A DNA stretch of 32,000 nt from Candidatus Minimicrobia sp. QA0096 (GCF_963967315.1 NZ_OZ017288.1:180001-212000), one strand, 5' to 3'. Positions 804 through 16,765 are shown, numbered from the stretch's first letter. Numbers and translations: made by a program. The notes: generated by a model not told the origin, from the sequence alone.

Positions 804-1577
804 ATGGAAAAAAGAATGTTTGCAGAAAAAGCGCCACGCGTCGATACTGCAAAAGTATATCGAGCACTTGCAATGCTAGCTTTATTACCATCGTGTGTAT
901 TGGCTGGATGCGCAGGCGAAAAAGGAGTTGATGCTGGAAGCTCAAGTTCAGCCCCATATGGCGACTCTGAAACTACTACATCTCAGCCAGAAAATAGCAA
1001 TACCGGGAATCCGTCACAAAATAAAAAAGACGATTCTGCGGGAAAAATAGATATAGAAAAGAACTCAATGTACTATTCGGAGAACGGAACCCGCGAAGGA
1101 TTTATAGCTAACTGTACAGCAAGAACCTACGACGGATTCCCTGAAAAGGCAAACTGTTCAATGTATATTTGCGATGGAAACGATGTGGTTTTCTTCACAT
1201 TCGAAGATATCGACTTCACCGAACAAACTCATGGACGAAGAAAACCTGAGATCTCAGACCTAATGAACAAGACAAGAACATTAGCAATGGAGTATGAGTA
1301 TTATATTCCAACCGAAATCGGAAAGAATATGACTGAATGCCGAGAGAAGAAAAGCAGCGTAGGGCAATTCACTAAGCCTGTATCTTCTTCACGCAGCGAA
1401 AATGAGCAATACCTCTGCCTTCCTCAATTTATGACAACAATAGACGGAGAGAAGGTTGCTTTGGAAATCACAAAGACTACATCTGTCAACGAGGAAGACA
1501 ATAACAATAGCCCATATTATCCTCACTATACGCTTGGTACTTCTAAAGAATGTTTTGACACAAGGTTCACTCATTAG
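804..1577 (+). CDS. Hypothetical Cys-rich lipoprotein
   Basis: GGGAGG SD lies 4 nt before ATG 804. The N-terminus ...ALAMLALLPSCVLAGC has a lipobox L-A-G-C (Cys36), followed by an S/T/N/Q-rich linker. The mature part has several Cys. No family recognised. Confidence 0.7.
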   Translation: MEKRMFAEKAPRVDTAKVYRALAMLALLPSCVLAGCAGEKGVDAGSSSSAPYGDSETTTSQPENSNTGNPSQNKKDDSAGKIDIEKNSMYYSENGTREGFIANCTARTYDGFPEKANCSMYICDGNDVVFFTFEDIDFTEQTHGRRKPEISDLMNKTRTLAMEYEYYIPTEIGKNMTECREKKSSVGQFTKPVSSSRSENEQYLCLPQFMTTIDGEKVALEITKTTSVNEEDNNNSPYYPHYTLGTSKECFDTRFTH

Positions 1578-1651: not shown

Positions 1652-2836
1652 TTATTTGTTAATCTTTGTAACAACACCAGCACCAACTGTACGGCCACCT
1701 TCGCGGATAGCAAAGTTCAAACCTTGCTCCATAGCGATTGGTGCAAGCAACTTAACCTTGAAGGTTACAGTGTCGCCTGGCATAACCATTTCTTTGTCAG
1801 CTGGCAATTCAACTTCACCAGTAACGTCAGTTGTGCGGAAGTAGAACTGTGGCTTGTAGCCCTTTGAGAATGGAGTGTGGCGACCGCCCTCTTCCTTCTT
1901 CAAGATGTAAACTTCAGCTTCAAACTCAGTATGTGGAGTAATTGTGCCTGGCTTTGCCAAAACTTGACCACGCTCAATGTCGCTGCGCTCAATACCGCGT
2001 AGCAAGACACCTGCGTTGTCACCTGCTTGACCTTGGTCAAGAGATTTCTTGAAGGCCTCAATACCAGTTACAACTGACTTCTGAGTTGGCTTCAAACCAA
2101 CGATTTCAACTTCGTCGTTCAATTTAACAACACCCTGCTCGATACGACCAGTTGCTACTGTACCACGACCCTTAATTGAGAAGACGTCCTCAATTGGCAT
2201 AATGAATGGTTTGTCCATGTCACGTGCTGGCTCTGGAATGTAGCTGTCCATTGCGTCAACCAATTCCATAATAGCGTCTTCGTATTTCTCTTCACCTTCA
2301 AGAGCCTTAAGAGCAGAACCCTTGATGATTGGAGCGTCTTTGTCGAAGCCGTTCTTTTCAAGAAGTTCGCGGACTTCTTCTTCGATCAGCTCAACCATTT
2401 CTTCGTCAGCCATGTCCATCTTGTTCAAGAAGACAACGATCTTTGGCACACCAACCTGCTTTGCAAGCAAAACGTGCTCACGAGTCTGAGGCATTGGGCC
2501 GTCAGTTGCAGCGATAACCAATACCGCACCGTCAACCTGAGCAGCACCGGTGATCATGTTCTTGACGTAGTCAGCGTGTCCTGGCATGTCAACGTGTGCA
2601 TAGTGACGATTCTTTGATTCATACTCTTGGTGTGAAGACGCGATAGTAATACCACGTTGCTTCTCTTCTGGTGCGTTGTCGATCTGGTCGTACGCAACAG
2701 GTTTGTTAACTGCGCTTGGTAGGCGCTTTGCCAACACTGCAGTAATCGCAGCAGTCAGCGTAGTCTTACCGTGGTCAACGTGGCCCATTGTACCAACGTT
2801 AACGTGCGGTTTGCTTCGGTCAAATGCATCTGCCAT
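1652..2836 (-). CDS. tuf: Elongation factor Tu
   Basis: 394 aa with [10 protein letters not shown]-loop, DMPGHADY and NKMD. Full-length EF-Tu-like sequence. AAGGAG SD upstream. Confidence 0.99.
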
Positions 2837-2917
2837 TTGTAGAAGTTCTCCTTAATTTAATTATTATTTTTCACGCGGGTACAGTCCATAAAAAAGACCT
2901 CACGGCGTATGAGTTTA

Positions 2918-2946
2918 ATTATAACGATTTTCCAATCAGTTGTAAA
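2918..2946 (-). promoter_or_regulatory. Putative sigma70-type promoter for tuf
   Basis: The minus strand reads TTTACA (rc 2941-2946), a 17-nt spacer, then TATAAT (rc 2918-2923), about 80 nt upstream of the tuf ATG and just after the tgt stop. Confidence 0.55.
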
Positions 2947-2950
2947 TAGC

Positions 2951-5876
<2,926 letters not shown>

Positions 5877-5886
5877 ATTGCTATAT

Positions 5887-5914
5887 ATTATACAACTTTA
5901 ATCGATATTTACAA
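5887..5914 (-). promoter_or_regulatory. Putative promoter for the 565-aa ORF/tgt operon, with a very short leader
   Basis: The minus strand reads TTGTAA (rc 5909-5914), a 16-nt spacer, then TATAAT (rc 5887-5892). The ATG at 5876 lies only 10 nt after the -10 and no SD is present. Confidence 0.45.
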
Positions 5915-5930
5915 GCATAGCCCCTTCCGT

Positions 5931-7916
5931 ATGCTGTATACTAGAAACATGAGCAATAAAACCCTCGTTGATTTGGACCAGTGGCTAGCCCCGCACAAAT
6001 CCACAATTCAGGCGCGTGAGAAGTATATTTCTTCGAAGCTGAAAACGGTTTTAAACGGCAAGACGCCAGCCGAATTCGCGATAGGTTTTTTACATTTCGG
6101 ACTTCATAAAACAGATGCAGGATGGGCTTTTAGAGAATGGGCGCCGAATGCCACTCGGATATTCTTAGTTGGCGATTTTTCAGATTGGAAAGAACGCGAA
6201 GAATTCGCCTTAGATCGCGGCGAGAATAGCGAATGGAGCATAAACCTTCCTGAAAATTCACTTCGCCACGGACAGAAATATAAATTGCGCGTCTATTGGA
6301 CTAACGGCAACGGCTGGCGACTGCCCTCGTATGCGAATTACGTCGTTCAGGACGAAAATTCTGTCGATTTTTCCGCGGTCGTGTGGTCGCCAAAAACTCC
6401 TTATGATTGGCAATATAAAACCCCACCCAAGCCAAAAGTTCCACTAATTTACGAAGCGCACGCCGGCATGAGTAGTCAGGAAGAAAAAGTTGCCAGTTTC
6501 AGTGAATTTACCACGGAGGTTTTACCGCGAATTAAAGAATCTGGCTATAACACCATTCAGCTAATGGCAATCGCCGAGCATCCATATTACGGCAGTTTCG
6601 GTTATCATGTCAGCAACTTTTTCGCGGTTTCGTCAAGATTTGGCACGCCCGACGATTTTAAGAAATTGGTCGACACGGCGCACGGAATGGGACTGCGCAT
6701 CATCATTGACCTTGTTCACGCTCACGCCGCCAAAAACGAAGTCGAAGGTCTGAGCAATTTTGCCGGCGATCCGACACAATATTTCAAGCCAACAAATCAT
6801 CCAGAATGGGATTCGCGATTATTCGATTACGGTAAGCCAGAAGTTTTGCATTTTTTGGCAAGCAATTGTCGCTGGTGGCTGGACGAATATCACATTGACG
6901 GATTTAGGTTTGATGGCATAACTAGTATGATTTACCACGATCACGGACTCGGAAAAAGTTTCACTAGTTATGACGATTATTTCCGCGATAATGTCGACAA
7001 AGACGCGCTCGCTTATTTAAGATTGGCAAATGAAACCATTCACGCCGTTCGCCCCGACGCCACGACCATTGCAGAAGAAATGAGTGGCTTTCCTGGACTT
7101 GGCGCATCAACAAAAGACGGCGGGCTGGGATTTGATTATCGCTTGCAAATGGGCGCGCCAGATTTATGGATAAAAACTCTGAAAGAGAAAAATGATGAAG
7201 ATTGGGATTTGGGGCAATTGGCTTACACTTTGAGTTCGTATCGGCCAGAGGAAAAAGTCATTAATTACGCCGAAAGCCATGACCAAGCGCTCGTCGGTGA
7301 TAAAACGCTGATTTTCCGATTGATTGATAAAAATATGTATTGGCATATGGATAAAATTGATCCAGATTTAACAGTTGAGCGTGGCGTGGCGCTGCATAAA
7401 CTAATTCGTCTAATGACAGCTGGGCTGCATGGCGGCGGTTATTTGAATTTTATGGGCAATGAATTCGGGCATCCGGAATGGATTGATTTTCCGCGTGAAG
7501 GTAATAATTGGTCGTTTAAGCACGCTCGACGGCAATGGAATTTGCGCGACAATGGCTTCTTAAAATATCAATGGTTGGGAGATTTTGACGCGGCGCTGAT
7601 GAAGATTATTAGGCAAATTGATAATCCTAATGTTCACCATTTGACAGTTCGCCAATCTGATCATATGGTCAGTTTTATGCATGGCGACTTTTTATTTGTT
7701 ATCAATTTTTCGCCCGACAAATCCCACTCAGATTACGCAGTACCCGCAGAAGCTGGCTCTTATAAATTGGCATTAAGTAGCGATGACAAGAACTTCGGCG
7801 GGCAGGAGCGAATAGACCATAATTCCCGATTTTTCACTTCCCCGGCTGATAATAGCCACGACCTTAAAGTTTACTTGCCAGCCAGAACGGGCATTATTCT
7901 ACAGAAAGTTGACTAA
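5931..7916 (+). CDS. glgB: 1,4-alpha-glucan branching enzyme, GH13 eukaryote-like type
   Basis: 661 aa. It shows YEAHAGMSS, GYNTIQLMAIAEHPYYGSFGYHVSNFFAVSSRFGTPDDFKKLVDTAHGMGLRIIIDLVHAHA, GFRFDGITSMIYHDHG, IAEEMSGFPG and YAESHDQALVGDKT. These closely parallel the conserved GH13 regions of eukaryotic GBE1-type branching enzymes. The start is ambiguous between ATG 5931 and ATG 5949. Confidence 0.93.
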   Translation: MLYTRNMSNKTLVDLDQWLAPHKSTIQAREKYISSKLKTVLNGKTPAEFAIGFLHFGLHKTDAGWAFREWAPNATRIFLVGDFSDWKEREEFALDRGENSEWSINLPENSLRHGQKYKLRVYWTNGNGWRLPSYANYVVQDENSVDFSAVVWSPKTPYDWQYKTPPKPKVPLIYEAHAGMSSQEEKVASFSEFTTEVLPRIKESGYNTIQLMAIAEHPYYGSFGYHVSNFFAVSSRFGTPDDFKKLVDTAHGMGLRIIIDLVHAHAAKNEVEGLSNFAGDPTQYFKPTNHPEWDSRLFDYGKPEVLHFLASNCRWWLDEYHIDGFRFDGITSMIYHDHGLGKSFTSYDDYFRDNVDKDALAYLRLANETIHAVRPDATTIAEEMSGFPGLGASTKDGGLGFDYRLQMGAPDLWIKTLKEKNDEDWDLGQLAYTLSSYRPEEKVINYAESHDQALVGDKTLIFRLIDKNMYWHMDKIDPDLTVERGVALHKLIRLMTAGLHGGGYLNFMGNEFGHPEWIDFPREGNNWSFKHARRQWNLRDNGFLKYQWLGDFDAALMKIIRQIDNPNVHHLTVRQSDHMVSFMHGDFLFVINFSPDKSHSDYAVPAEAGSYKLALSSDDKNFGGQERIDHNSRFFTSPADNSHDLKVYLPARTGIILQKVD

Positions 7917-7929
7917 TCTCCTCCTAGTA

Positions 7930-7958
7930 TTGACTTTTTTACGCAAGTGTTGTATAAA
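7930..7958 (+). promoter_or_regulatory. Promoter of small membrane-protein cassette A
   Basis: TTGACT (7930-7935), a 17-nt spacer, then TATAAA (7953-7958). The same arrangement recurs at cassette B. Confidence 0.6.
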
Positions 7959-7967
7959 TGAATACAG

Positions 7968-7997
7968 ACTTTCGTTGACAATCCCGTCAACGAAAGT
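7968..7997 (+). promoter_or_regulatory. 5'-leader hairpin of cassette A (or palindromic operator)
   Basis: ACTTTCGTTGAC (7968-7979) pairs perfectly with GTCAACGAAAGT (7986-7997), loop AATCCC. It starts about 10 nt after the -10 element. Confidence 0.6.
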
Positions 7998-8017
7998 AGT
8001 CCTTAGTGAAAGGGTCA

Positions 8018-8413
8018 ATGATGAAACTCAAGCTGACTGCGGCAGTCCTGGCGCTGATCGGGATGACAAGCCTCCTCATGGGAGGCTCATATCTGACTGT
8101 CGTCGTGGCTGTCATCTGTACAGCCACAGCACTGCCCCTATCTCTGCACCTAACATTTAGGTGGTTTGTAGAGGATCCGCACGACGGTCTACTGTGGTTC
8201 TGGTCGGTCGTGTGGGCCACTATATCAGTGATGGCGGCAGCTAGCATGCTCCAATACATTGGAGTCGTAGACGTACCGCTTAGTGCGGCCATTGACAACG
8301 CACAGAAGATAGGGGAAGTGAGACAGTATGTCTCATATGCAAACATTGTCTCCATTCTTCTCGCGGTCATCATCCCACAGTCGCCCAAGTGCGACAACAA
8401 TGACGAGGACTAA
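8018..8413 (+). CDS. Small polytopic membrane protein A (131 aa) with acidic C-terminal tail ...PKCDNNDED
   Basis: Start taken at ATG 8018 or 8021 after GAAAGGG, since the ORF-track GTG 8006 lies immediately 3' of the leader hairpin with no SD upstream. The sequence is almost entirely hydrophobic helices (LTAAVLALIGMTSLLMGG, TVVVAVICTATALPLSL, LLWFWSVVWATISVMAAASML, ANIVSILLAVII). It is bracketed by its own promoter and terminator. Confidence 0.65.
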   Translation: MMKLKLTAAVLALIGMTSLLMGGSYLTVVVAVICTATALPLSLHLTFRWFVEDPHDGLLWFWSVVWATISVMAAASMLQYIGVVDVPLSAAIDNAQKIGEVRQYVSYANIVSILLAVIIPQSPKCDNNDED

Positions 8414-8415
8414 CC

Positions 8416-8486
8416 GCCCGTCAAGAAATAGTTCGCCTTGAGACTTTTAGTCTCGGCTGGAGCTTTCTTGGCGGGCTATTTCTTTT
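8416..8486 (+). terminator. Long-stem intrinsic terminator of cassette A
   Basis: A 13-bp outer stem pairs GCCCGTCAAGAAA (8416-8428) with TTTCTTGGCGGGC (8464-8476), including one G.U pair. An inner hairpin GAGACT-TTT-AGTCTC lies at 8440-8454. TATTTCTTTT follows. Confidence 0.7.
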
Positions 8487-8514
8487 GGTTTGTGGAATCA
8501 TTTCGTATATCCTA

Positions 8515-8543
8515 TTGACTTTTTGATGTAGATGTTGTAAAAT
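8515..8543 (+). promoter_or_regulatory. Promoter of small membrane-protein cassette B
   Basis: TTGACT (8515-8520), a 17-nt spacer, then TAAAAT (8538-8543), immediately preceded by TG (8536-8537). Homologous to the cassette A promoter. Confidence 0.6.
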
Positions 8544-8550
8544 GAATACA

Positions 8551-8580
8551 GTCTTTGTTGACAACCCCGTCAACAAAGGT
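8551..8580 (+). promoter_or_regulatory. 5'-leader hairpin of cassette B
   Basis: CTTTGTTGAC (8553-8562) pairs perfectly with GTCAACAAAG (8569-8578), loop AACCCC. It is extendable by two G.U pairs (8551-8552 with 8579-8580). Confidence 0.6.
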
Positions 8581-8601
8581 AGTTCTTGTGGAAGGAAAGC
8601 C

Positions 8602-9045
8602 ATGAACAGCAACAACACGAGTCTCGGCATCAGCCTGAGGACTATGGTCTTTACCATCAGTGCGTGCGCAGTCTTCGTGCTCACACTAGGCACGACTATC
8701 GGGGCAATTATCTGCTCCACAGCTCTCCTGGTGGCGGCGCAAGCTCTTACTATCCCCCTCGGCTGGGTCTACTTTAGTTCTACTGGTAAAATCCCAACAG
8801 TAGCGCTGAAGGTGACTGCAATACTTGGTACGGTAGTATATGTCGCGCTATTAGCCTCAAATATCGACACCCTAATCACTGACTGGGGTGACCTAACGAC
8901 GGCGTTTAACGTCGTCATTGATGGAGAGGGGTGGGCCGGCGCGCTGGCGTTCACGCTGTTTATGTGTACGTTGCCAGTGGTGACTGCGGTCATCGCGCCA
9001 GTGCCGCCCGAGCGCGATGATTACTGTAACGACGACGAGGACTAA
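8602..9045 (+). CDS. Small polytopic membrane protein B (147 aa) with acidic C-terminal tail ...YCNDDED
   Basis: Start taken at ATG 8602 after GGAAGGAAAG, because the ORF-track ATG 8542 lies inside the -10 element and leader hairpin. Multiple hydrophobic helices. The last codons GAC GAG GAC TAA are identical to cassette A. Confidence 0.65.
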   Translation: MNSNNTSLGISLRTMVFTISACAVFVLTLGTTIGAIICSTALLVAAQALTIPLGWVYFSSTGKIPTVALKVTAILGTVVYVALLASNIDTLITDWGDLTTAFNVVIDGEGWAGALAFTLFMCTLPVVTAVIAPVPPERDDYCNDDED

Positions 9046-9049
9046 CCAC

Positions 9050-9120
9050 GCCCGTCAAGAGAAATAGTTCGCCTTGAGACTTTTAGTCTCGGCTGAGCTC
9101 TCTTGGCGGGCTATTTCTAT
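9050..9120 (+). terminator. Long-stem intrinsic terminator of cassette B
   Basis: A 13-bp outer stem pairs GCCCGTCAAGAGA (9050-9062) with TCTCTTGGCGGGC (9099-9111), with the same G.U pair as cassette A. The inner hairpin GAGACT-TTT-AGTCTC lies at 9076-9090. TATTTCTATT follows. Confidence 0.7.
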
Positions 9121-9148
9121 TGGCATAAAATTTGTTACACTAGATATT

Positions 9149-10540
9149 GTGAAGAAAAAAGTACCAAAATTCATTGAGCAATCATTAGCCCGAGTTGCTA
9201 ATCTTTACAGCTTTGAGCCGGAGCATCACCTGGAGAAAATTGACGAAAGTTTGACGCCGAATATGCGAGCTTTGCGCCTGGCTATGGCGATTGCCGAGCA
9301 ACTCCTGAGTATGGGCGTGGTGGCGCGCGATGTGGTTCGTATGGCGCAAGGAATTACGCGGACATATTGCCGCAGACCCGTTCACGTGGACGTAAGTTAC
9401 ACTTTGGTGACAATTTCTCAAGACCGCGGAGTCAGCCATGAGCCTTTGACAATGGCGCGAGTTATCGTTCCTGACGATCCTAATTATCAATTGATTCAAG
9501 CATTGCAATTATTAGCCCTCGACATTCGCCGCAAGCAACTTTCCCTGGAAGAAGCCGAAGAGCGATTGCAACAAATACTCAAAAAACCCACCGAACATTC
9601 CCGGCTAGTCGTTTACGCGGCGGGCGGATTGGTGAGCGCGGGTTCTGTTATTTTGTACGGCGGAAGTTTGCTCATGGCATCAATCGCGTTTCTGCTCGGA
9701 TTCTCAGCGACTGGATTATTAAGATGGCTGGGACGTATTGGCGCGCCGTTGTTTTATTCGCAAGCCCTCGTGGCGATTTTCGTAACATTGGTGGCGGCGG
9801 GCGCAGCTTGGTGTAGCAATTATCTGGGACTAAGCGTCAACGCAACATTGTTGGTTATCAGCGGAATTGTCTTATTAGTCGCGGGACTAATGTTTGTCGG
9901 CGCATTTCAGGACGCAATCGACGAATATTACATGACTGCCAACGCCAGATTGTTAAAAGTCGTAATGGCGACGGGCGGCGTAATTGCTGGCGTGATGGTC
10001 GGATTATACATTGCGACAAAATTTGGCGTAACATTCCCTGCGACACCGGATCGATTGACATTAGCAGACAAGCACACTCAGTATTTGGGGGCTGGAATTA
10101 TCGCGGCGGCGTTTGTCCTGAGGAATCATTCTCGATTCTTTGGCATGATTATTTCAGCATTAATTGCTATATTCGGCTGGTGGATTTCAAGATTAGCCAT
10201 GAGTTTTGGTTTTGATATCGTGACCGCAAGTGGTATCGCGGCGGCGGTAATTGGACTAGTCGCAGTCATGACTTCCAGGTTATGGAAATTCCCTTCCCTG
10301 GCGATTATTGCGGCGGGAATCGTGCCATTAGTTCCAGGATTGTCGCTTTACAATGGATTGATGGGCGTAGTTTTATATCCACCGAACAGCGTAAACTTCC
10401 TACCAGCCTTGGCTATCTTAGCGCGAGCAATTCTCATCGGCGTAGCGGTAGCAATTGGCGCGTCATTCGGCAACATCGTCGGTCGCCCAATTCGCCGACA
10501 ATTCATTAATTTATTCCGTCGCAACACACAGATATCATAA
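9149..10540 (+). CDS. ThrE-family (threonine/serine exporter-like, YjjP+YjjB fused) membrane protein
   Basis: The N-terminal soluble part RLAMAIAEQLLSMGVVARDVVRMAQGITRTY..VHVDVSYTLVTIS is followed by about 10 TM helices, including LLVAGLMFVGAFQDAIDEY and IVPLVPGLSLYNGLMG, typical of ThrE/ThrE_2. The start is uncertain. The track's TTG 9074 lies inside the cassette B terminator, so I use in-frame GTG 9149. ATG 9262 (MRALRL...) is an alternative. Confidence 0.7.
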   Translation: MKKKVPKFIEQSLARVANLYSFEPEHHLEKIDESLTPNMRALRLAMAIAEQLLSMGVVARDVVRMAQGITRTYCRRPVHVDVSYTLVTISQDRGVSHEPLTMARVIVPDDPNYQLIQALQLLALDIRRKQLSLEEAEERLQQILKKPTEHSRLVVYAAGGLVSAGSVILYGGSLLMASIAFLLGFSATGLLRWLGRIGAPLFYSQALVAIFVTLVAAGAAWCSNYLGLSVNATLLVISGIVLLVAGLMFVGAFQDAIDEYYMTANARLLKVVMATGGVIAGVMVGLYIATKFGVTFPATPDRLTLADKHTQYLGAGIIAAAFVLRNHSRFFGMIISALIAIFGWWISRLAMSFGFDIVTASGIAAAVIGLVAVMTSRLWKFPSLAIIAAGIVPLVPGLSLYNGLMGVVLYPPNSVNFLPALAILARAILIGVAVAIGASFGNIVGRPIRRQFINLFRRNTQIS

Positions 10541-10565
10541 AAAATAACCCGAAATTTAGCCAAAC

Positions 10566-10596
10566 AAAAATCCCCGGATTCGCTCCGAGGATTTTT
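10566..10596. terminator. Bidirectional terminator between the ThrE-family gene and fusA
   Basis: AAAAATCCCCGGA (10566-10578) pairs with TCCGAGGATTTTT (10584-10596) with one mismatch, loop TTCGC. A-run and T-run arms serve both strands. Confidence 0.7.
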
Positions 10597-10609
10597 TATG
10601 AGGTAGAGA

Positions 10610-12700
10610 TTATTTATTTCGCTTTTCGATAATCTCTTGCGCAACGTTTGGTGGAACTTCCTCGTATTGAGCTAATTCCATCGTTGAAGCGGCGCGACCC
10701 TGAGACATTGAGCGAATGTCCGATGTGTAGCCGAACATATTTGCTAATGGCACAAACGCCTTAATCAACTTAGCGCCACCCATCAAGTCTTCCATAGCGT
10801 CGATACGTCCGCGACGTGAGTTAAGGTCGCCGATGATGTCACCCATGAAGTCTTCTGGTGTAGTAACTTCAACCTTCATAACTGGCTCAAGCAAGATTGG
10901 GTTAGCCTGCTTAATACCTTCACGAGCAGCTATCGAACCTGCCAATGAGAACGCCAATTCTGAGGAGTCGACATCGTGGTATGAACCATCGTAAAGTGTA
11001 GCCTTAACGTCAACAACTGGATAGCCAGCAATAACACCGCCTTCCAATGTTTCGCGAATACCCTTCATTACGGCTGGGCGATATTCCTGAGGAACCACAC
11101 CACCCTTAATTTCATCAACGAATTCAAAGCCCTTACCAGTCTCATTTGGCTCAAAGCGAACCCAAACGTCACCATATTGACCGCGACCACCAGACTGCTT
11201 GGCGTGCTTACCTTGAACTTCAGAGCGACCCTTGATACTTTCGCGGAAGGCAACCTGAGGTTCACCAATATTGGCTTCAACCTTAAATTCGCGCTTCATA
11301 CGGTCAATAAGAATATCTAGTTGCAATTCACCCATTCCTGACATAATCGTCTGACCTGTTTCTTCGTCAGTATGAATTCGGAAAGTTGGGTCTTCTTCAG
11401 CCAAGCGCTGCAATGCCAACGCCATTTTTTCCTGGTCAGCCTTTGACTTTGGCTCAACCGCGATTGATACAGGTGGCTCTGGAAATTCAATTGATTCAAG
11501 AGTAATTGGATGCGCCACGTCAGACAACGTGTTACCAGTTGCGGTAGATTTCAGACCAACCACAGCAGCGATGTCACCAGCTTCAACCTTGCTAATTTCT
11601 TCACGCTTGTCAGCAAACATACGAACGATTCGTCCAATTCGCTCTTTCTCGCCAGTTGTCGTGTTAAGTACGTAGCTTCCTGAGTTCAGAACACCAGAAT
11701 AGACACGAACGAAGATCAATTTACCAACAAATGGGTCGGTAGCAATCTTAAACGCCAAAGCAGACAAAGGCTCTTTATCTGACGGCTTGCGGCTAACTTC
11801 GTCACCGGTCTTTGGATTCTTGCCCCAAATTTCATCAACGTCTAGCGGACTTGGCAAAAAGTCAACCATCAAGTCAAGCAACTTCTCAACGATCACACCG
11901 CGACCGTCACCACCAGTGACTAGGTAAAAGTCACCAGCCAAAACGCGCTTACGTAGAGCCATCTTTAGCTCGTCAACGGTAATAGCTTCTTCGCCTTGAT
12001 CCAAGAACTTCATCATCAATTCGTCATCAGCCTCAACAGCGTTTTCAACCAACAGAGAACGTGCGTTCTTAGCTTTTTCAAGCATGTCAGCTGGAATCTC
12101 ACCAACCTTCAACTCGTGATCTGTGTAGTCGTCGTAGGTGTAAGCCTTCATGTCAATCAAGTCGACAACACCGTGGATAGTCTTTTCAAAACCAATTGGC
12201 AAGTGAACTGGGAAAGCTTGCTTACTCAAGCGGTTGTGAATTGATTCTAGAGACTTGTAGAAGTCGCCACCAGTCTGATTAATCTTGTTAACGAAACAAA
12301 TACGTGGCACGCCGTACTTATTGGCCTGGCGCCAAACGGTTTCAGACTGAGCCTCAACACCCATCTTACCGTCAAAGACCGTAACTGCACCGTCAAGCAC
12401 ACGCAAACTACGCTCAACCTCAGCAGTAAAGTCGATGTGCCCTGGAGTGTCGATGATGTTAATCTTGTGATCTTTCCAGAAACAAGTCACAGCAGCTGAC
12501 GTAATAGTAATACCACGCTCTTTCTCCTGTGCCATCCAGTCGGTGGTAGCACCGTCACCTTCACCACGAACCACACCGATCTTATGTGTCAAGCCAGTGC
12601 GGTACAAAATACCCTCAGTTGTCGTCGTTTTACCGGCGTCAATATGGGCAATAATACCAATATTTCTAAAATTCTTTAGCGGAACATGCGTCTCTGCCAT
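10610..12700 (-). CDS. fusA: Elongation factor G
   Basis: 696 aa with AHIDAGKTT and DTPGHIDF. Full-length EF-G-like domain order. AAGGA SD upstream. Confidence 0.99.
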
Positions 12701-12778
12701 AAATTTTCCTTTATATTACGTTAATTTGCCGAGATTTTTGGTCAATTTTTTGGCACCAAAAAACTACTCTTGCGTTTT

Positions 12779-12807
12779 ATTATATCAGTTATCTATGTTT
12801 TTGACTA
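12779..12807 (-). promoter_or_regulatory. Putative promoter for fusA
   Basis: The minus strand reads TAGTCA (rc 12802-12807, overlapping the protease stop), a 17-nt spacer, then TATAAT (rc 12779-12784). Confidence 0.4.
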
Positions 12808-15282
12808 GCTCTGAGTCGGAGGATTTTTAGACTCGTTGTCGTTCTGAGCTGGCGCCGCAGGCTGATAGTTAGATGGAGACTGTTGCATAGGCGGCTGCGC
12901 GTATGTTGGCGGATATTGACCAGGTTGCTGTGGATAGTAGTTCTGCTGCGAATATTGTTGTTGCGGCGGAGTTGGTTGTTGATATGGCTGCTGTGGATAC
13001 TGAGACTGCTGCGGGAATTGTCCAGCGACAGGATATGGATAGGCATTCATATTTCGGCGATTACTGACAGAAACAGCAATTGCGATAATTGACACTGTTA
13101 AGAATAATGCTCCCGTTGAAAGAATCGCCACAACCACGATTATAACTGTAGTGTTATTTTCTGATTCACTCGTTCCAGCTTCTGCGCTAGATGTCTCGCT
13201 TTCCGTAGAATCATCTGGAGTATTGGATGAAACTTCGATCATCTTCGCCACCAAATAATTGTCGGGATATTTTTTATCCAATTGTTCAAATTTAGCTTTT
13301 GCCTGAGAATATTTACCTTGAGAAAAACTCTCCAAGCCATCTTTCCAGAGCTTAGTCAATTCGCCGTTTGCCGATAACGCAACATTATTTTTCTTCGCCA
13401 TAGTCTTCAGATCGGCGATATCACGAAATATTCCCTCTCCAAAACAAGAATTGTTGCGCTCGCTCCTATCCGCACAGGATGAACCGCCGTAGGTGTTTAG
13501 TCCAATCTGCTTACCATCGTCATCAAACGCTGGACCGCCACTGTTGCCTGCCGCAATTTGCGCGCTCATTGAAAATAGCTTATGTCCGCCCGCGTCACTG
13601 CCCGAACCAGAAACATTCCCCTGAGTAACGGTTGGCACAGTCTTACTCTTCTTCGTATTTACACCGTCATCGACAATTGCTGGATAACCAATCGCCGTCA
13701 CCCGATCACCTCTAGAAATCCTAGATCTATCGCCCAATTCTACCGCCGGAAATCGCCCTTCGACCTTCAGAATCGCCACATCACTTTTGTCGCTATTCAG
13801 GTCCATGCCACGACCCTTCAAATCAACTTCCGCGTCAATTTTCTTAGCTGGAATATTAGTCTTCGTCTTTTTCCACTTAAGATTGCCCGAACCGTCATCT
13901 TCGCGCGCAATAGGTTCGCTTGAGGTCTGAATGACATAATCGTATCGATCGTTTTGCGAACGTATATTATCGGCAGGAACTTGGTTGATAAGACCGAGAA
14001 TTGCCGCTTGCGCACTCTGATCGCCGCCGTTAGCCTTATTTGCCAAATCCCGAAGCGTCTCTCGAGTCACATAGCCCGCATCTACCACAAACTTTATATA
14101 TTTATTCATGTTTTCTTGCGTGTTGAGACCCATGATCATACTCTGATTAGAAACTTCAGTAACATGCCCGTTTGTAGCAATGTAGCCGTCATCAGAAACA
14201 ATCGATCCACTACCAATTCCGCCCGTACACAAACCATTCAGCTGCATACTAGCACCGTTCTGTGCCGTATAGATCATATCCGCACAACGATATGTCCCTA
14301 CACGGACCGTAGCAATTTGATTCCTTGCCACCACTTTAATAACAGAATCTTCGTCTAGTTCATCCAAGGTATTCGTAGTGTCCTTATCTTCTGAGAAATT
14401 TTCCGCCTTAGTTTCGGTCTTAGCTATCGTAGCGGAAGCCACTTGCGCCTCATTGTTGCCATCAGCCCTAACCAAGTAGCTACTGTCTGGATTCTGGAAA
14501 GTAACCTTAGCAACCAGCGCCTCCAGCTGGTCAATATATGGCTGCGTGTACGAATTTTTACTCAATGCAAAAATCGTCATCCAGTAAGGTCTGCCGTTCT
14601 GAATCGTTAAATAAGTTATTTTTTCACCAGTTTTCTGCCACTTGCCATCAATAGTGCTTCCGTAATCGACGACCATCTTCTTAAACTTCTTCCCAGAAAT
14701 CGTCGCGTCGCTAGTGTGATATTTTAAGTTCGGATTATCCTTTTTCTGCTTGTTGATATCGCCCTGAAGCATTAAATCCAAATCTGAATATTTCTTCGTG
14801 TCCTTGTATTCCTCGGGCATCGTTGAGCGATCAAAATAAGCTTTTTTGCGCGAAGTTATGATTGAGAAGTCTGGCATAATCTTCCTAAACGAGAAGTTCT
14901 CTTCTTCCTCCTTCGGCTTTTCTGAACCTTTCCTAAAATGCAATCGCAAAATCGCATAAGCGCGGCTTTCTTTCAATTCATCATCGGCATACGTAGTGGC
15001 GCTATACTGTTTTTCATTAGAGTCTTTATTTAAAACGTGACCTTCGCCAGTAAAAATACTCTTATCGTACCGAATCGAATAGCCATATTTGGAAACGACC
15101 TTCTGCGAGTTCTTAGCATCTTCTTCGGCAAAAATCTTCTGGATCTTCTTTTTTGCGGTTTTACTAACTCCGGAAGAGCGGTTATTATTAACGACAATCA
15201 GCCCAACTATAACAGAGATCAAGAAAACTACACCCAGAACGATGGCTGCAATTTTTAATTTCTTCATTGACTTATGGTTCAT
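12805..15282 (-). CDS. Membrane-anchored trypsin-like (S1/HtrA-type) serine protease with a C-terminal second TM and Q/P/Y-rich tail
   Basis: 825 aa. N-terminal TM IAAIVLGVVFLISVIVGLIVV. Catalytic triad context GSGSIVSDDGYIATNGHV (His), SDVAILKV (Asp), GNSGGPAFDDDGKQIGLNT (Ser). A helical TPR-like stretch (SQGKYSQAKAKFEQLDKKYPDNYLVAKM) is followed by a second TM TVIIVVVAILSTGALFLTVSIIAIAVSV and an 86-aa low-complexity tail. Confidence 0.85.
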   Translation of the reverse strand: MNHKSMKKLKIAAIVLGVVFLISVIVGLIVVNNNRSSGVSKTAKKKIQKIFAEEDAKNSQKVVSKYGYSIRYDKSIFTGEGHVLNKDSNEKQYSATTYADDELKESRAYAILRLHFRKGSEKPKEEEENFSFRKIMPDFSIITSRKKAYFDRSTMPEEYKDTKKYSDLDLMLQGDINKQKKDNPNLKYHTSDATISGKKFKKMVVDYGSTIDGKWQKTGEKITYLTIQNGRPYWMTIFALSKNSYTQPYIDQLEALVAKVTFQNPDSSYLVRADGNNEAQVASATIAKTETKAENFSEDKDTTNTLDELDEDSVIKVVARNQIATVRVGTYRCADMIYTAQNGASMQLNGLCTGGIGSGSIVSDDGYIATNGHVTEVSNQSMIMGLNTQENMNKYIKFVVDAGYVTRETLRDLANKANGGDQSAQAAILGLINQVPADNIRSQNDRYDYVIQTSSEPIAREDDGSGNLKWKKTKTNIPAKKIDAEVDLKGRGMDLNSDKSDVAILKVEGRFPAVELGDRSRISRGDRVTAIGYPAIVDDGVNTKKSKTVPTVTQGNVSGSGSDAGGHKLFSMSAQIAAGNSGGPAFDDDGKQIGLNTYGGSSCADRSERNNSCFGEGIFRDIADLKTMAKKNNVALSANGELTKLWKDGLESFSQGKYSQAKAKFEQLDKKYPDNYLVAKMIEVSSNTPDDSTESETSSAEAGTSESENNTTVIIVVVAILSTGALFLTVSIIAIAVSVSNRRNMNAYPYPVAGQFPQQSQYPQQPYQQPTPPQQQYSQQNYYPQQPGQYPPTYAQPPMQQSPSNYQPAAPAQNDNESKNPPTQS

Positions 15283-15294
15283 ACCGCTCCAACC

Positions 15295-15789
15295 CTAACG
15301 ATAATTTACAAACTGCAGAGGTGTATCATAATCACTTTCTCGTAATAAACTAATGACTTTTTGCAGTTCATCCTTCGACGCAGAAGTAACACGAACGAGG
15401 TCGCCCTGAATTTGCGGCTTAGCTTTCGGCGCATTAGCGCGAATATCAGCGGCAATCTGCTTCGCCATCGGCTGATCAAGGCCTTGCTTGAACGTAATCT
15501 CCCAAGTAGTCTTCAGGTTCGAAACAACTTTCTCTTTTGACAAATCCAGAACTTTGCTCGACTGACCACGCCCCGCCAATTTCTTGCGCACGATATCCAG
15601 AACAGCATCAACTTGCCAATCATTGTCGCCGGTAATTTTCAGACCCTTTTTATCATCCAGCCAATCAATTGCCGCGCTCGTCCCCTTAAAATCATAACGC
15701 CCTTGGATTTCTTTTTCAGCCTGCATGAAAACATTATTCATCTCAGCCTTGTCAATTTCTGACACAATATCAAACGAAAAACTCGCCAT
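15295..15789 (-). CDS. yajQ: YajQ-family (UPF0234) nucleotide-binding protein
   Basis: 164 aa. The N-terminus MASFSFDIVSEIDKAEMNNV....RYDFKG matches the YajQ hallmark MPSFDIVSE...RFDF. AGGAGGG SD upstream. The stop lies 12 nt before the protease start. Confidence 0.85.
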   Translation of the reverse strand: MASFSFDIVSEIDKAEMNNVFMQAEKEIQGRYDFKGTSAAIDWLDDKKGLKITGDNDWQVDAVLDIVRKKLAGRGQSSKVLDLSKEKVVSNLKTTWEITFKQGLDQPMAKQIAADIRANAPKAKPQIQGDLVRVTSASKDELQKVISLLRESDYDTPLQFVNYR

Positions 15790-15810
15790 TTCTCCCTCCT
15801 AATTTTTTCT

Positions 15811-15845
15811 ATTATATCAAAAAATCGCCCCGTTTAGAGCGATTT
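15811..15845 (-). terminator. rpsG terminator overlapping an extended -10 promoter for yajQ
   Basis: The minus strand has stem AAATCGC/GCGATTT (15822-15828 with 15839-15845), a 10-nt loop and a T-run. TGATATAAT (rc 15811-15819) follows immediately, 21 nt upstream of the yajQ ATG. Confidence 0.55.
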
Positions 15846-15869
15846 CCTGATTTTGCTTTCAAGCAATAA

Positions 15870-16349
15870 TTAGCCACGAGCAAAGTGCGCAAAGGCGCGG
15901 TTAGCTTCAGCCATCTTATGAGTGTCTTCCTTCTTCTTAAAGGCAGCACCAGCTTCATTGTAAGCGTCAACGATTTCCAACGCCAATCGCTGTGAATATG
16001 GCATTCCACTGCGAGCGCGAGCTGATTGAACTAACCAACTGAACGCATAGTGCAATTGACGATGCCCCTGAACTGGGAATGGAATCTGGTAGTTAGCACC
16101 ACCAACGCGACGAGATTTAACCTCAAAGCTTGGGCTAACGTTCTTCAATGCTTTTTCAAACACTGCCAATGGATCTTCAGAATCCAATTTCTTAGCAGCA
16201 GTTTCTAGAGCTGTGTAGACAGCGCGTTCAGCCGCCAACTTTTTACCGTCTAGCATTGACTTGTTGATCAAACGCTGAACTAGTACGCTTTGATATCGGC
16301 GATCAGGTTTAAGTTCACGTTGCAACTTCTTGGTAACTTTACGAGGCAT
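15870..16349 (-). CDS. rpsG: 30S ribosomal protein S7
   Basis: 159 aa beginning MPRKVTKKLQRELKPDRRYQS, ending ...AHFARG. Typical S7 sequence. It starts 2 nt after the rpsL stop. Confidence 0.99.
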   Translation of the reverse strand: MPRKVTKKLQRELKPDRRYQSVLVQRLINKSMLDGKKLAAERAVYTALETAAKKLDSEDPLAVFEKALKNVSPSFEVKSRRVGGANYQIPFPVQGHRQLHYAFSWLVQSARARSGMPYSQRLALEIVDAYNEAGAAFKKKEDTHKMAEANRAFAHFARG

Positions 16350-16351
16350 GA

Positions 16352-16765
16352 TTATTTATCCCCTTTCTTTGTACCGTACTTAGAGCGACCCTTCTTACGG
16401 TTGTTAACACCCTGAAGGTCAAGTGCACCACGTACGATGTGATAACGCACACCAGGAAGGTCAGGCACACGACCACCGCGGATCAAGACCACAGCGTGCT
16501 CCTGCAAGTTGTGACCTTCACCACCGATGTACGCCCAAACTTCATAGCCATTGTTCAACTTAACACGAGCAACTTTACGCAAAGCTGAGTTTGGTTTCTT
16601 TGGCGTCTTAGTCGTCACACGCACACAAACACCACGCTTAAGCGGTGCATTCTGGTCGTAATAACGTGTTTTTAGGGCGTTATGAATACGACCTAGTGCT
16701 GGCGACTTGGACTTTTTCTTAGCCGTTTGGCGCGGTTTGCGCACCAATTGGTTGATTGTTGGCAT
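16352..16765 (-). CDS. rpsL: 30S ribosomal protein S12
   Basis: 137 aa with [12 protein letters not shown]... and [15 protein letters not shown]. Typical S12 sequence. AAGGAG SD upstream. Confidence 0.99.

Follow-up and report, generated by a model that had tools for sequence, protein, structure and literature searches.

Candidate expression cassettes with conserved flanks and variable cargo between glgB and thrE in oral Saccharibacteria

Integrons consist of the integrase IntI, an attI site, and attC-bounded gene cassettes, which are generally promoterless and are expressed from a common promoter, Pc. Replacement-type flexible genomic islands, e.g. O-antigen and capsule loci, are exchanged by homologous recombination in their conserved flanks. 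Immunity-gene arrays are represented by AID/rAID of the Bacteroidales, TsaI/EsaG of the Staphylococcus aureus type VII system, and the pneumococcal blp region; rAID and blp contain repeated conserved intergenic or promoter sequences. The vlp, vsp, and vsa families of Mycoplasma are lipoproteins with repetitive extracellular regions, which are switched by promoter repeats or by site-specific inversion. Here we analyse a stretch of 32,000 nt (below, “the window”), from an oral Saccharibacterium, probably Candidatus (Ca.) Minimicrobia sp. QA0096, in which two adjacent units, A (7928-8488) and B (8513-9123), lie between glgB and thrE. Each has a predicted promoter, a leader hairpin, one open reading frame (ORF) for a small membrane protein, and a long-stem terminator, and the flanks of the two units are near-identical, whereas the coding interiors are effectively unalignable. 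With a probability of roughly 0.62, A and B both represent a standard, self-contained cassette for expression, which oral Saccharibacteria of the Nanosynbacter/Minimicrobia group exchange by recombination.

The locus resembles integron arrays in its tandem single-ORF units with unrelated, mostly uncharacterised cargo, each ending in a conserved imperfect hairpin, and in its strain-variable content at a fixed platform. It differs in that no IntI was found in the window or beside the cassette sites, attC cores are absent, each unit has its own promoter and leader, the hairpin is a predicted RNA terminator, and three islets of 1-4 cassettes replace one large array. Integron cassettes in the proper sense were thus rejected for lack of an integrase, of attC cores, and of a promoterless state. 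With replacement-type islands it shares the fixed place between conserved core genes, cargo alleles that appear older than the backbone, and a balancing-like signature. In contrast to them, the exchange is at the scale of single genes, each with a portable promoter, leader, and terminator that recur at other loci. Compared with known hypervariable islets that are exchanged by recombination, the locus is unusual in that each gene has portable standard borders, which are common to several loci and to unrelated cargo.

Like immunity-gene arrays, the cassettes are tandem, variable in copy number, and mosaic, and encode strain-specific small proteins, many of them polytopic. Unlike in those arrays, no toxin, bacteriocin peptide, secretion system, or recombinase was found linked to them, and there was no match in sequence or fold to known immunity families. 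The Mycoplasma families are similar in their clustering, the conserved 5′ non-coding region, the divergent gene bodies, and the strain-variable repertoires; however, the cassette proteins are compact predicted bundles of four transmembrane (TM) helices with little exposed surface, a lipobox is not general, and neither an invertase nor a promoter homopolymer was seen. Saccharibacteria are obligate epibionts with very small genomes, and the basis of their host range and strain individuality is, to our knowledge, largely unknown. Our literature searches retrieved no description of the glgB|thrE locus or of such cassettes, and a TM7x transcriptome preprint does not report on such genes at gene level in its main text. 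Hosts defend themselves against Saccharibacteria with Esx, so that membrane- or surface-directed antagonism does occur in this symbiosis; the cassette genes have no part in this defence, and the term “hypervariable” in that study refers to host proteins, not to these cassettes (PMC13622651).

Two predicted units with similar flanks and dissimilar interiors

The islet and its borders comprise the following features, all on the plus strand.

5931-7916: gene for a glgB-like branching enzyme (Pfam CBM_48, Alpha-amylase, Alpha-amylase_C), left border of the islet
7930-7958: predicted unit A promoter from the sequence, -35 TTGACT (7930-7935), 17-nt spacer, -10 TATAAA (7953-7958)
7968-7997: 5′-leader hairpin of unit A from the predicted fold, perfect 12-bp stem ACUUUCGUUGAC/GUCAACGAAAGU, loop AAUCCC
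8009-8014: Shine-Dalgarno (SD)-like sequence AAAGGG of unit A, from the sequence
8018-8413: cassette A ORF, 131 amino acids (aa), A-like (M-[LM]-KLK...), predicted four-helix membrane protein with an acidic C-terminal tail
8363-8413: coding part of the shared 3′ block, end of TM4 and acidic tail (...LLAVIIPQSPKCDNNDED*), from direct repeats D3 and D6
8414-8488: predicted long-stem intrinsic terminator of unit A, stem 8416-8476, U-rich tract 8477-8488, from the fold
8489-8512: inter-cassette spacer (TTTGTGGAATCATTTCGTATATCC), kept at internal array junctions of other strains
8515-8543: predicted unit B promoter from a promoter scan, TTGACT (8515-8520), 17-nt spacer, TAAAAT (8538-8543)
8553-8578: 5′-leader hairpin of unit B from the predicted fold, 10-bp stem UCUUUGUUGAC/GUCAACAAAGG, loop AACCCC
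8602-9045: cassette B ORF, 147 aa, B-like, four predicted hydrophobic helices and an acidic tail
9046-9123: predicted long-stem intrinsic terminator of unit B, stem 9050-9111, U-rich tract 9112-9123, from the fold
9103-9131: predicted thrE promoter TTGGCG-17-TAAAAT from the promoter scan, overlapping the 3′ arm of terminator B
9149-10540: gene for a ThrE-family exporter (Pfam ThrE, ThrE_2), right border of the islet

The promoters, the hairpins directly after the predicted transcription starts, the ORFs, and the terminators were all found where the initial annotation had placed them, and ORF reading confirmed the lengths of 131 and 147 aa and the identical last codons GAC GAG GAC TAA. The near-identity of the flanks, which had been claimed from a hand alignment, held on re-alignment: the 5′ blocks have 71 of 82 positions identical plus 5 gap positions (73 of 82 plus five indels had been counted), and the 3′ blocks have 84 of 86 identical plus three short indels, as before. 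The conserved 3′ block is not confined to the last four codons. It starts about 50 nt inside the coding sequence, at the end of TM4 and the acidic tail, and these coding parts (A 8363-8413, B 8986-9045 or 8977-9045) are 75-76% identical.

For the interiors, which had been described as unalignable, BLASTP gave no alignment even at E≤100, and the DNA identity equals the shuffled baseline. A comparison of A-clade and B-clade profiles over the full length gave an hhalign E-value of 5e-14. However, this match stems wholly from the shared tail, i.e. the last ~20 residues, and was rejected as proof of interior homology because it vanished once the tail was cut: the remaining in-register alignment of TM1-TM2 had E-values of 0.006-0.05 and probabilities of 1-6%, compared with E-values of 0.27-0.52 for reversed controls. 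The B-like clade was missed by an exhaustive profile search for which most of the seed sequences were A-like. Strains within the A-like clade can be aligned clearly with one another over the interiors, with 33-91% aa identity, and A versus B alone is effectively unalignable. Both proteins have the same four-segment hydropathy layout and the same acidic tail. A common ancestry is plausible from this shared architecture, although interior homology is not demonstrable; A and B may be either paralogs that diverged past recognition or unrelated genes fitted into one frame.

The same contrast was found in a larger sample. In 465 pairs among 33 unique cassettes, the flank identity was 0.82-0.92 whatever the protein identity, and the interior DNA identity equalled the shuffled baseline (0.65) for all pairs with less than 45% protein identity; the aligner is gap-liberal and gives 65% “identity” for shuffled sequences, so that these values are to be read relative to the baseline only. 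Compared with the window, first-position 5′ blocks differ by p=0.05-0.19 (mean 0.10), and the value is 0.08 for locus L115, at which the synonymous divergence (dS) of glgB and thrE from the window exceeds 1. The flank blocks are functional and under purifying selection, because they are conserved across species at dS >1, i.e. beyond what recent homogenisation alone would yield.

Both predicted promoters have the near-consensus hexamers and the 17-nt spacer of the sigma-70 type, and that of unit B has 10 of 12 consensus matches in the promoter scan. The promoter block of unit A, including its spacer, is kept in the first-position cassettes of 17 genomes, and it also precedes unrelated cargo genes at two other loci. 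The unit B promoter represents a “non-first-position” variant, and the variant follows the position in the array, not the type of cargo. The unit A hairpin (-20.6 kcal/mol, z -4.6 versus 200 shuffles) begins about 3-5 nt into the predicted transcript; the unit B hairpin (-17.4 kcal/mol, z -2.4) differs from it by compensatory changes from C-G to U-A and from U-A to C-G. Leaders of ermC and aprE carry 5′-terminal stem-loops that stabilise Gram-positive mRNAs, and the cassette leaders are similar to them in having a strong hairpin that lies 5′ of the SD and only a few nt from the predicted start of the mRNA. The AAAGGG of unit A lies 3 nt 5′ of ATG 8018 and 6 nt 5′ of ATG 8021, and other cassettes have GGAG or GGAAAGG at this position. 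In unit B, the SD sequence GGAAGGAAAG precedes ATG 8602, and by its sequence context this ATG is the start of ORF B, rather than ATG 8542, which lies inside the -10 box.

Both terminators have the features of intrinsic terminators, i.e. a stable GC-containing stem-loop and a U-rich tract 3′ of the stop codon. On the coding strand, the stem lies 2-7 nt past the TAA and is followed by CUAUUUCU(U/A)UUGG, and in unit A by UAUUUCUUUUGG. The folding energies are -36.5 kcal/mol (z -5.5) for unit A and -39 kcal/mol (z -6.1) for unit B. Like typical intrinsic terminators, they combine a GC-rich stem with a U tract; in contrast to these, the stem is unusually long (~27-30 bp), and conservation is far higher in the 3′ arm than in the 5′ arm. 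The 3′ arm (CTCTTGGCGGGCTATTTCT in unit A) is nearly invariant, with a mean p=0.02 from that of the window. The difference between the arms is explained by the last terminator, whose 3′ arm overlaps the predicted thrE promoter and alone persists in an empty slot (see below). The inter-cassette spacer is also kept after unrelated cargo genes.

Two long ORFs are open on the opposite (minus) strand, one of 137 aa (7987-8400) across cassette A and one of 99 aa (8421-8720) across the A/B junction. They have no support as genes and probably arise from the high GC content of the third codon positions.

Cassette content at glgB|thrE and at two further sites

The glgB|thrE slot was compared in 20 species-representative genomes and 8 assemblies. 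The genes around the slot are nearly invariant: the aa identities are 94-96% for GlgB, 97-99% for ThrE, and about 99% for elongation factor G (EF-G), and the ratios of nonsynonymous to synonymous divergence (dN/dS) across species are 0.03-0.10 for glgB and 0.01-0.07 for thrE. The dS of both genes from the window is 0.2-0.35, and >1 for L115. In the same genomes, the proteins encoded between glgB and thrE have 35-67% identity or are undetectable. A census of 66 complete glgB-to-thrE slots gave the following contents.

One A-like cassette: 32 of 66
A+B, as in the window: 9 of 66
B alone: 3 of 66
Group-5 cargo alone: 3 of 66
A+A: 2 of 66
A+A+B: 2 of 66
B+A: 1 of 66
Essentially empty (147 nt; L153): 1 of 66
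Other (unrelated cargo, untyped ORFs, mixed arrays): 13 of 66

The commonest contents are thus A alone and then A+B, and the range is zero to four cassettes; among the 13 “other” slots are some in which as many as four cassettes carry entirely different genes. Promoter and terminator modules are equal in number in 60 of the 66 slots. The empty slot retains only the 3′ arm of the terminator, in front of thrE. The same cassette architecture is present in the isolate or complete genomes CP076459, CP157587, and OX335598.

A metagenome scan with the invariant terminator arm yielded at least 120 loci. At least 137 terminator copies have an upstream ORF; about 77 of them follow A-like or B-like proteins, and the remaining copies follow at least 8 unrelated orphan cargo groups, i.e. 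other small proteins with several TM segments (including two), proteins with TM segments plus coiled coils, and coiled-coil proteins of 300-340 aa. Among the matches listed, 80 loci lie at glgB|thrE, 12 at der|pth, and 18 beyond hisS-tig-clpP-thyA, with one contig that spans glgB|thrE and der|pth counted twice, and with 11 further loci that are unplaced short contigs or chance matches. Cassettes with other cargo have a common promoter block, often letter for letter (TATTGACTTTTTTAC.CA.GTGTG.TATAAAT), a predicted transcript start near AGCUUUU, and directly after it a hairpin with a conserved base and a cargo-specific apex. In a survey of 117 distinct cassette leaders, 84% of the 58 with other cargo and 95% of the 59 with A/B cargo fold better than shuffles at z<-2.

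The initial annotation had allowed for the possibility that the flanks are a generic repeat of the repetitive extragenic palindrome (REP) or miniature inverted-repeat transposable element (MITE) type, next to unrelated genes. The second part of this was borne out, as unrelated cargo is framed at all three loci. The first was not: among the matches listed, the modules occur only as ordered promoter...ORF...terminator units at three sites, with the terminator arm always 3′ of a plus-strand cargo ORF and the promoter module 5′ of it, and a dispersed REP/MITE-type repeat was rejected. The presence of the flanks beside unrelated genes in ordered units therefore widens the cassette interpretation and does not refute it.

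The A/B hairpin was also searched as an 18-mer in 596 Gb, and, among the matches listed, it was found at one locus per Saccharibacteria genome; matches outside Saccharibacteria, in unrelated phyla, are due to chance. Viral contigs gave no match to the terminator arm and 10 isolated matches to the hairpin 18-mer, with neither a terminator arm nor a glgB or thrE neighbour, which were taken as chance. The 18-mer GTTGACAANCCCGTCAAC also has a single copy per genome in about nine Rothia genomes (L013, L015, L020, L024, L035, L060, L086, L088, L092), where it presumably belongs to a conserved coding segment unrelated to the cassettes.

The initial annotation had proposed two explanations for the conserved flanks, i.e. 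replacement of cassettes by recombination between them and diversification of the proteins under uniform expression signals, and both were substantiated. For the first, the slot contains from zero to four genes, some of them unrelated, and the segments assort freely and form mosaics; for the second, the flanks diverge far less than the synonymous sites of the neighbouring genes. The promoter variant follows the array position and the leader past the hairpin follows the cargo, which places breakpoints in the hairpin. The terminator apex occurs in compensatory variants (GAGAC/GUCUC, AAGGC/GCCUU, and others) that are independent of the cargo. In the window, unit B has the same apex as unit A, GAGAC/GUCUC, and the same B allele has AAGGC/GCCUU or another apex elsewhere, so that identical B alleles carry three different apexes. 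When six segments (promoter, leader, N-terminus, middle, tail, and terminator apex) were typed independently in 41 cassettes, they were found to assort semi-independently. Examples of mosaics are P0124 (type-3 body with the tail of B), P0043 (type-3 body with a type-2 tail), and P0122 (B body with another tail), and P0021, P0007, and P0095 are hybrids of N- and C-terminal parts. Recombination at the cassettes appears to be pervasive, because the segments assort independently.

The B allele is identical in 8 other assemblies, which were retrieved by exact identity of protein B, and its dS from the window is 0-0.018, compared with about 0.2 for the adjacent thrE, which indicates a recent transfer of B across backbones. 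In contrast, the A-type alleles have dS values of 0.5-1.5 and dN/dS values of 0.25-0.5, with 0.01-0.10 for the neighbours. Judged by these values, they appear to be older than the backbone (dS 0.2-0.35) and far less constrained than the neighbouring genes, yet not neutral. The codons are GC-richer than those of the neighbours, as had been noted by eye, with a GC content at third positions (GC3) of 0.62 (A) and 0.64 (B), compared with 0.40-0.50 in eleven neighbouring genes. All 33 unique cassettes are GC-rich at the third position (GC3 0.585±0.036) and avoid codons that are preferred by the backbone, e.g. Leu TTG (0.12 versus 0.50) and Val GTT (0.11 versus 0.55). Either a distinct history or GC-biased gene conversion at a hot spot of recombination could account for this codon usage.

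Several additional observations were made on individual cassettes. Unrelated cargo ORFs tend to end with ...KG* or ...QG* (RTKG, DEKG, AHQG, VQHQG, DSDKG), followed by TAAC and the terminator, e.g. in L144, L145, L155, L197, L203, L215, and others; the last two or three codons of a cargo gene thus seem to be dictated by the conserved 3′ block behind it. In the single A-like cassette of Ca. Minimicrobia vallesae CP076459 (L027, 4528-4938), the N-terminal third and the tail are normal but the middle is scrambled and basic, as if the reading frame had been lost and then regained, so that it would be a pseudogene or reflect a sequencing error. Similar frame-broken variants are present among metagenome proteins (P0131, P0137, P0138, P0146, P0147). 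One B-like type has a (CA)5 tract in frame directly after the ATG (MHTHIVNLL...; compared in L063, at ~216-235 after orientation, L221, and L147), and in another assembly a (CA)6 tract shifts the frame. This tract, which recalls the repeat-based ON/OFF switching of Mycoplasma, could be a slipped-strand ON/OFF switch.

Explanations for the conserved flanks

The favoured explanation is that each cassette, i.e. a near-consensus sigma-70-type promoter, a 5′-end stem-loop, an SD, one cargo ORF, and an intrinsic terminator of ~27-30 bp, would be an autonomous, strongly expressed transcription unit, present singly or in tandem at three fixed islets, glgB|thrE, der|pth, and a site beyond hisS. The 5′ stem-loop most likely would stabilise or regulate the mRNA. 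The long hairpin would end transcription and insulate neighbouring units, and the last terminator arm would double as the -35 element of the thrE promoter. The conservation of the flanks would reflect both purifying selection on working expression signals and recombination among the repeats. Together with the nearly invariant border genes, the repeated flanks may serve as homology arms for homologous recombination, resulting in gene replacement, changes in copy number by unequal crossing-over, gene conversion, and mosaics. The DNA would probably enter by natural transformation. Strain TM7-008 has been engineered by natural transformation with linear DNA and homologous insertion (PMC13622651), and this strain carries the glgB|thrE cassette locus (L043).

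Such a mechanism would allow an exchangeable repertoire without mobile-element machinery, from repeated expression signals and homologous recombination. The three islets concentrate strain-to-strain variation in gene content at the loci examined, and are candidates for functions in host interface, immunity, or exclusion. The combination of old A alleles and a recently spread B allele points to balancing or frequency-dependent selection. The best guess for the cargo, though a doubtful one, would be a role as membrane-embedded, strain-specific determinants in antagonism or recognition, either immunity-like, e.g. as a shield from membrane-acting factors that come from the host bacterium or from competitors, or at the host interface. 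We also advance, tentatively, a recombinase-free cassette system, in which the modules are selected both as expression signals and as homology arms, and transformation shuffles a population-wide pool of strain-specific membrane and coiled-coil cargo among the three islets, with the cargo deciding on host range or on survival of the weapons of hosts or competitors. If true, an epibiont with a genome of 0.7 Mb would have a compact counterpart to an integron or to an array of immunity genes. The cassettes are accessible to experiment, as natural transformation allows the engineering of carrier strains, i.e. TM7-008 and probably TM7x. The conserved modules could be used for finding cassettes in metagenomes, for strain typing, and as expression parts for Saccharibacteria.

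Several points weigh against the favoured explanation. The promoters, transcription start sites, and terminators are predictions from sequence. The spread of the B allele was seen in eight loci retrieved by exact identity of protein B, i.e. with a selection bias. Poor alignment and unusual codon usage could explain part of the high dS of the A-type alleles, and the dN/dS is <1 overall, so that positive selection is not demonstrated; relaxed constraint together with recombination could yield a large part of what is seen. Chimeras can arise when a hypervariable locus bounded by repeats is assembled from metagenomes, which could account for some apparent mosaics; the isolate or complete genomes, however, have the same architecture. 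The covariation support for the hairpins is modest, with few varying pairs in related sequences, and the 6-bp core GUUGAC/GUCAAC of the A/B hairpin is invariant in 24 sequences, which would fit a palindrome bound by a protein. Lastly, nothing ties the proteins to a function: the one functional hint is a non-significant (E=2) CPBP/Abi-like motif set, in a cargo elsewhere (see below).

An explanation with ordinary tandem paralogs, i.e. duplication in place, fast divergence, and gene conversion limited to the flanks and the tail, with neither replacement of cargo nor a wider system, is unlikely, although several results fit it. A and B belong to the same length class and share the layout of four hydrophobic segments and the acidic tail; the weak in-register alignment of TM1-TM2 exceeds the reversed controls; the identities within the A clade form a continuum of 33-91%; and flank variants have spread between neighbours, as exemplified by the terminator apex of A in the B unit of the window. 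However, the modules also frame clearly unrelated proteins in the glgB|thrE slot and at two other loci, and the conservation of the flanks across species at dS >1 is beyond gene conversion within a genome. In addition, the interior homology of A and B is non-significant without the tail, and the exhaustive search seeded with A-like profiles missed the B-like clade.

The structure of the flanks bears on a second alternative, i.e. that the palindrome GTTGAC-N6-GTCAAC is the operator of a dimeric repressor or activator of a cassette regulon, with recombination as a side effect. In 24 distinct sequences, the 6-bp core arms and most of the loop are invariant, which would fit an operator; the spacers of the promoters are conserved beyond the needs of the hexamers, and the element is placed where a roadblock repressor would bind. 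In contrast, the remainder of the stem covaries by way of U.G intermediates, which are relevant only in RNA: in the 24 sequences, 98.5% of the cells of the 5′ hairpin are paired, three pairs change on both sides through the series C-G, U.G, U-A, only 1 of 500 column shuffles reaches the observed score, and all register shifts reduce the pairing to 24-60%. Hairpins of other cargo at the same place differ in the apex and include compensated cores (ACAGAC/GUCAGU, AUUGAU/GUCAAU, GUUGGC/GUCGGC). Compensatory changes are also found at two apical pairs of the terminator (G-C/A-U, 9 and 7 sequences), and three pairs switch between U.G and C.G on the plus strand. Because G.U pairs form only in the plus-strand transcript, the two hairpins seem to behave as RNA structures of the coding strand, with modest support. 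We regard the operator explanation as distinctly improbable on its own; it could be compatible with the cassette explanation, and both may hold.

The terminator also enters a third alternative, an integron-like or site-specific system, in which the 3′ hairpin is an attC-like site for a tyrosine recombinase encoded elsewhere. Single-ORF units that each end in a conserved imperfect inverted repeat of 60-70 nt, the unrelated cargo, the variable copy number, and the presence of one empty slot would all fit such a system. Nevertheless, no recombinase, integrase, transposase, or phage gene was found among the ORFs of the 32-kb window, and no recombinase or integrase among the genes that flank the three cassette sites. 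A direct reading of the aligned block showed that the attC cores RYYYAAC...GTTRRRY are absent. Every cassette has its own promoter, the empty slot holds only the 3′ arm, and the breakpoints are scattered over the 5′ hairpin, the coding sequence, and the tail, as for homologous recombination; the G.U pairs, the switches between U.G and C.G, and the U tract fit an RNA terminator of the plus strand. The involvement of a site-specific recombinase is thus very unlikely.

That the cassettes are artefacts, i.e. chance frames in a GC-richer spacer or a mis-assembled repeat, as the overlap of the 137-aa antisense ORF with ORF A and the differing starts chosen by gene callers (130, 131, or 135 aa for A; 147 or 167 aa for B) might suggest, can be set aside in view of ORFs that are intact throughout dozens of independent assemblies as well as complete genomes, dN/dS values of 0.25-0.5, conserved motifs (G22, T27, A31, C34, R48, PLSA), SD sites, a four-helix model of fair confidence, and hundreds of cluster members.

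Predicted proteins and genomic surroundings

Protein A is 100% identical to the NCBI hypothetical protein WP_338503329.1 of Ca. Minimicrobia sp. QA0096, encoded on a 689-kb contig. The AlphaFold2 model has helices at 2-21, 25-50, 56-81, and 95-118 and a disordered acidic tail, with a predicted local distance difference test score (pLDDT) of 77 and a predicted template modelling score (pTM) of 0.71, so that protein A is modelled with fair confidence as a four-helix membrane bundle. The Lys-rich N-terminus and the positive-inside rule suggest that both termini are cytoplasmic. In A-like proteins the variability is highest in the TM2-TM3 loop (51-55) and in helix 3, and lowest in helices 1 and 2, which have a face of small residues (G22, T27, A31, C34, A38); the loop between helices 3 and 4 carries the conserved PLSA motif. 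The model of protein B also has four helices, at a low confidence (pLDDT 59) that is too uncertain for a fold search.

About 282 relatives of A were found, all of them in oral Saccharibacteria (Ca. Nanosynbacter, TM7 oral taxon 352, Minimicrobia). In the exhaustive profile search of 1.84 billion representatives, the A family comprises 29 clusters, none of them outside this lineage; the B clade comprises 46 clusters. Neither A nor B had a significant match in Pfam, NCBIfam, PADLOC (including models of anti-phage defence and immunity), or PHROGs, and a Foldseek search of the A model against the PDB retrieved only generic helical bundles (best E 0.6). The same four databases gave no significant family for ten other cargo proteins.

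Two assignments were rejected. Some members are labelled as lipoproteins by the Joint Genome Institute (JGI); however, the A protein of the window has ...AVIC, with Ile at position -1 and the Cys in the middle of predicted helix 2, and most B-like members have no Cys, so that a 128-aa type (AIAC) alone formally fits a lipobox, i.e. [LVI][ASTVI][GAS]-C in the first ~35 residues, past the h-region of a signal peptide. Holins are small membrane proteins, usually with a basic charged C-terminus, whose genes adjoin that for an endolysin in phages or lysis modules. A holin or phage origin, the former of which the initial annotation had named as speculation, was dismissed because there are no phage genes nearby, the PHROGs E-values are ≥0.076, the tail is acidic, and the hairpin matches in viral contigs have none of the other cassette features.

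One cargo protein at the der|pth site (L183, 1493-2230, 245 aa) has, by eye, EExxFR, FxxxH, and HxxxN motifs as in CPBP/Abi intramembrane proteases, for which EExxxR, FxxxH, and HxxxN are characteristic. Its match to Pfam Rce1-like is in register and covers positions 11-92 of 93 at E=2 and 9.2 bits, compared with a cutoff of 22.4. The CPBP/Abi protease family is often linked to bacteriocin immunity.

The gene order around the pair is tuf (1652-2836, minus strand), tgt, a gene for a 565-aa acidic orphan, glgB, A, B, thrE, and fusA (10610-12700, minus strand), in agreement with the earlier statement that the pair is within the block that separates fusA from tuf. Beyond fusA follow, in this order, genes for a trypsin-like protease and a DUF520 protein, rpsG, rpsL, rpoC, rpoB, tmk, dcd, folA, thyA, clpP, tig, and hisS. 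The classical rpsL-rpsG-fusA-tuf (str) operon is thus split (1652-16765), with the DUF520 and protease genes between rpsG and fusA, and with thrE, the cassettes, glgB, the orphan gene, and tgt between fusA and tuf. Scans of the window with Rfam and for tRNAs gave no matches, and the two ORFs at 131-640 and 804-1577 (both plus strand, 169 and 257 aa) have no Pfam match.

The very acidic orphan of 565 aa (4179-5876, minus strand), which adjoins glgB, is kept with 560-567 aa at every related locus, and it had no match in Pfam, NCBIfam, PADLOC, or PHROGs. In some strains an additional gene for a 158-aa protein overlaps the end of thrE, before fusA (L002 7518-7994, L203 8224-8700, L215 8736-9212), where the window has only a 69-nt gap (10541-10609). 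The trypsin-like (Trypsin_2) protease of 825 aa (12805-15282, minus strand) has an N-terminal membrane anchor and a second hydrophobic segment, followed by a long, Pro/Gln/Tyr-rich C-terminus of low complexity.

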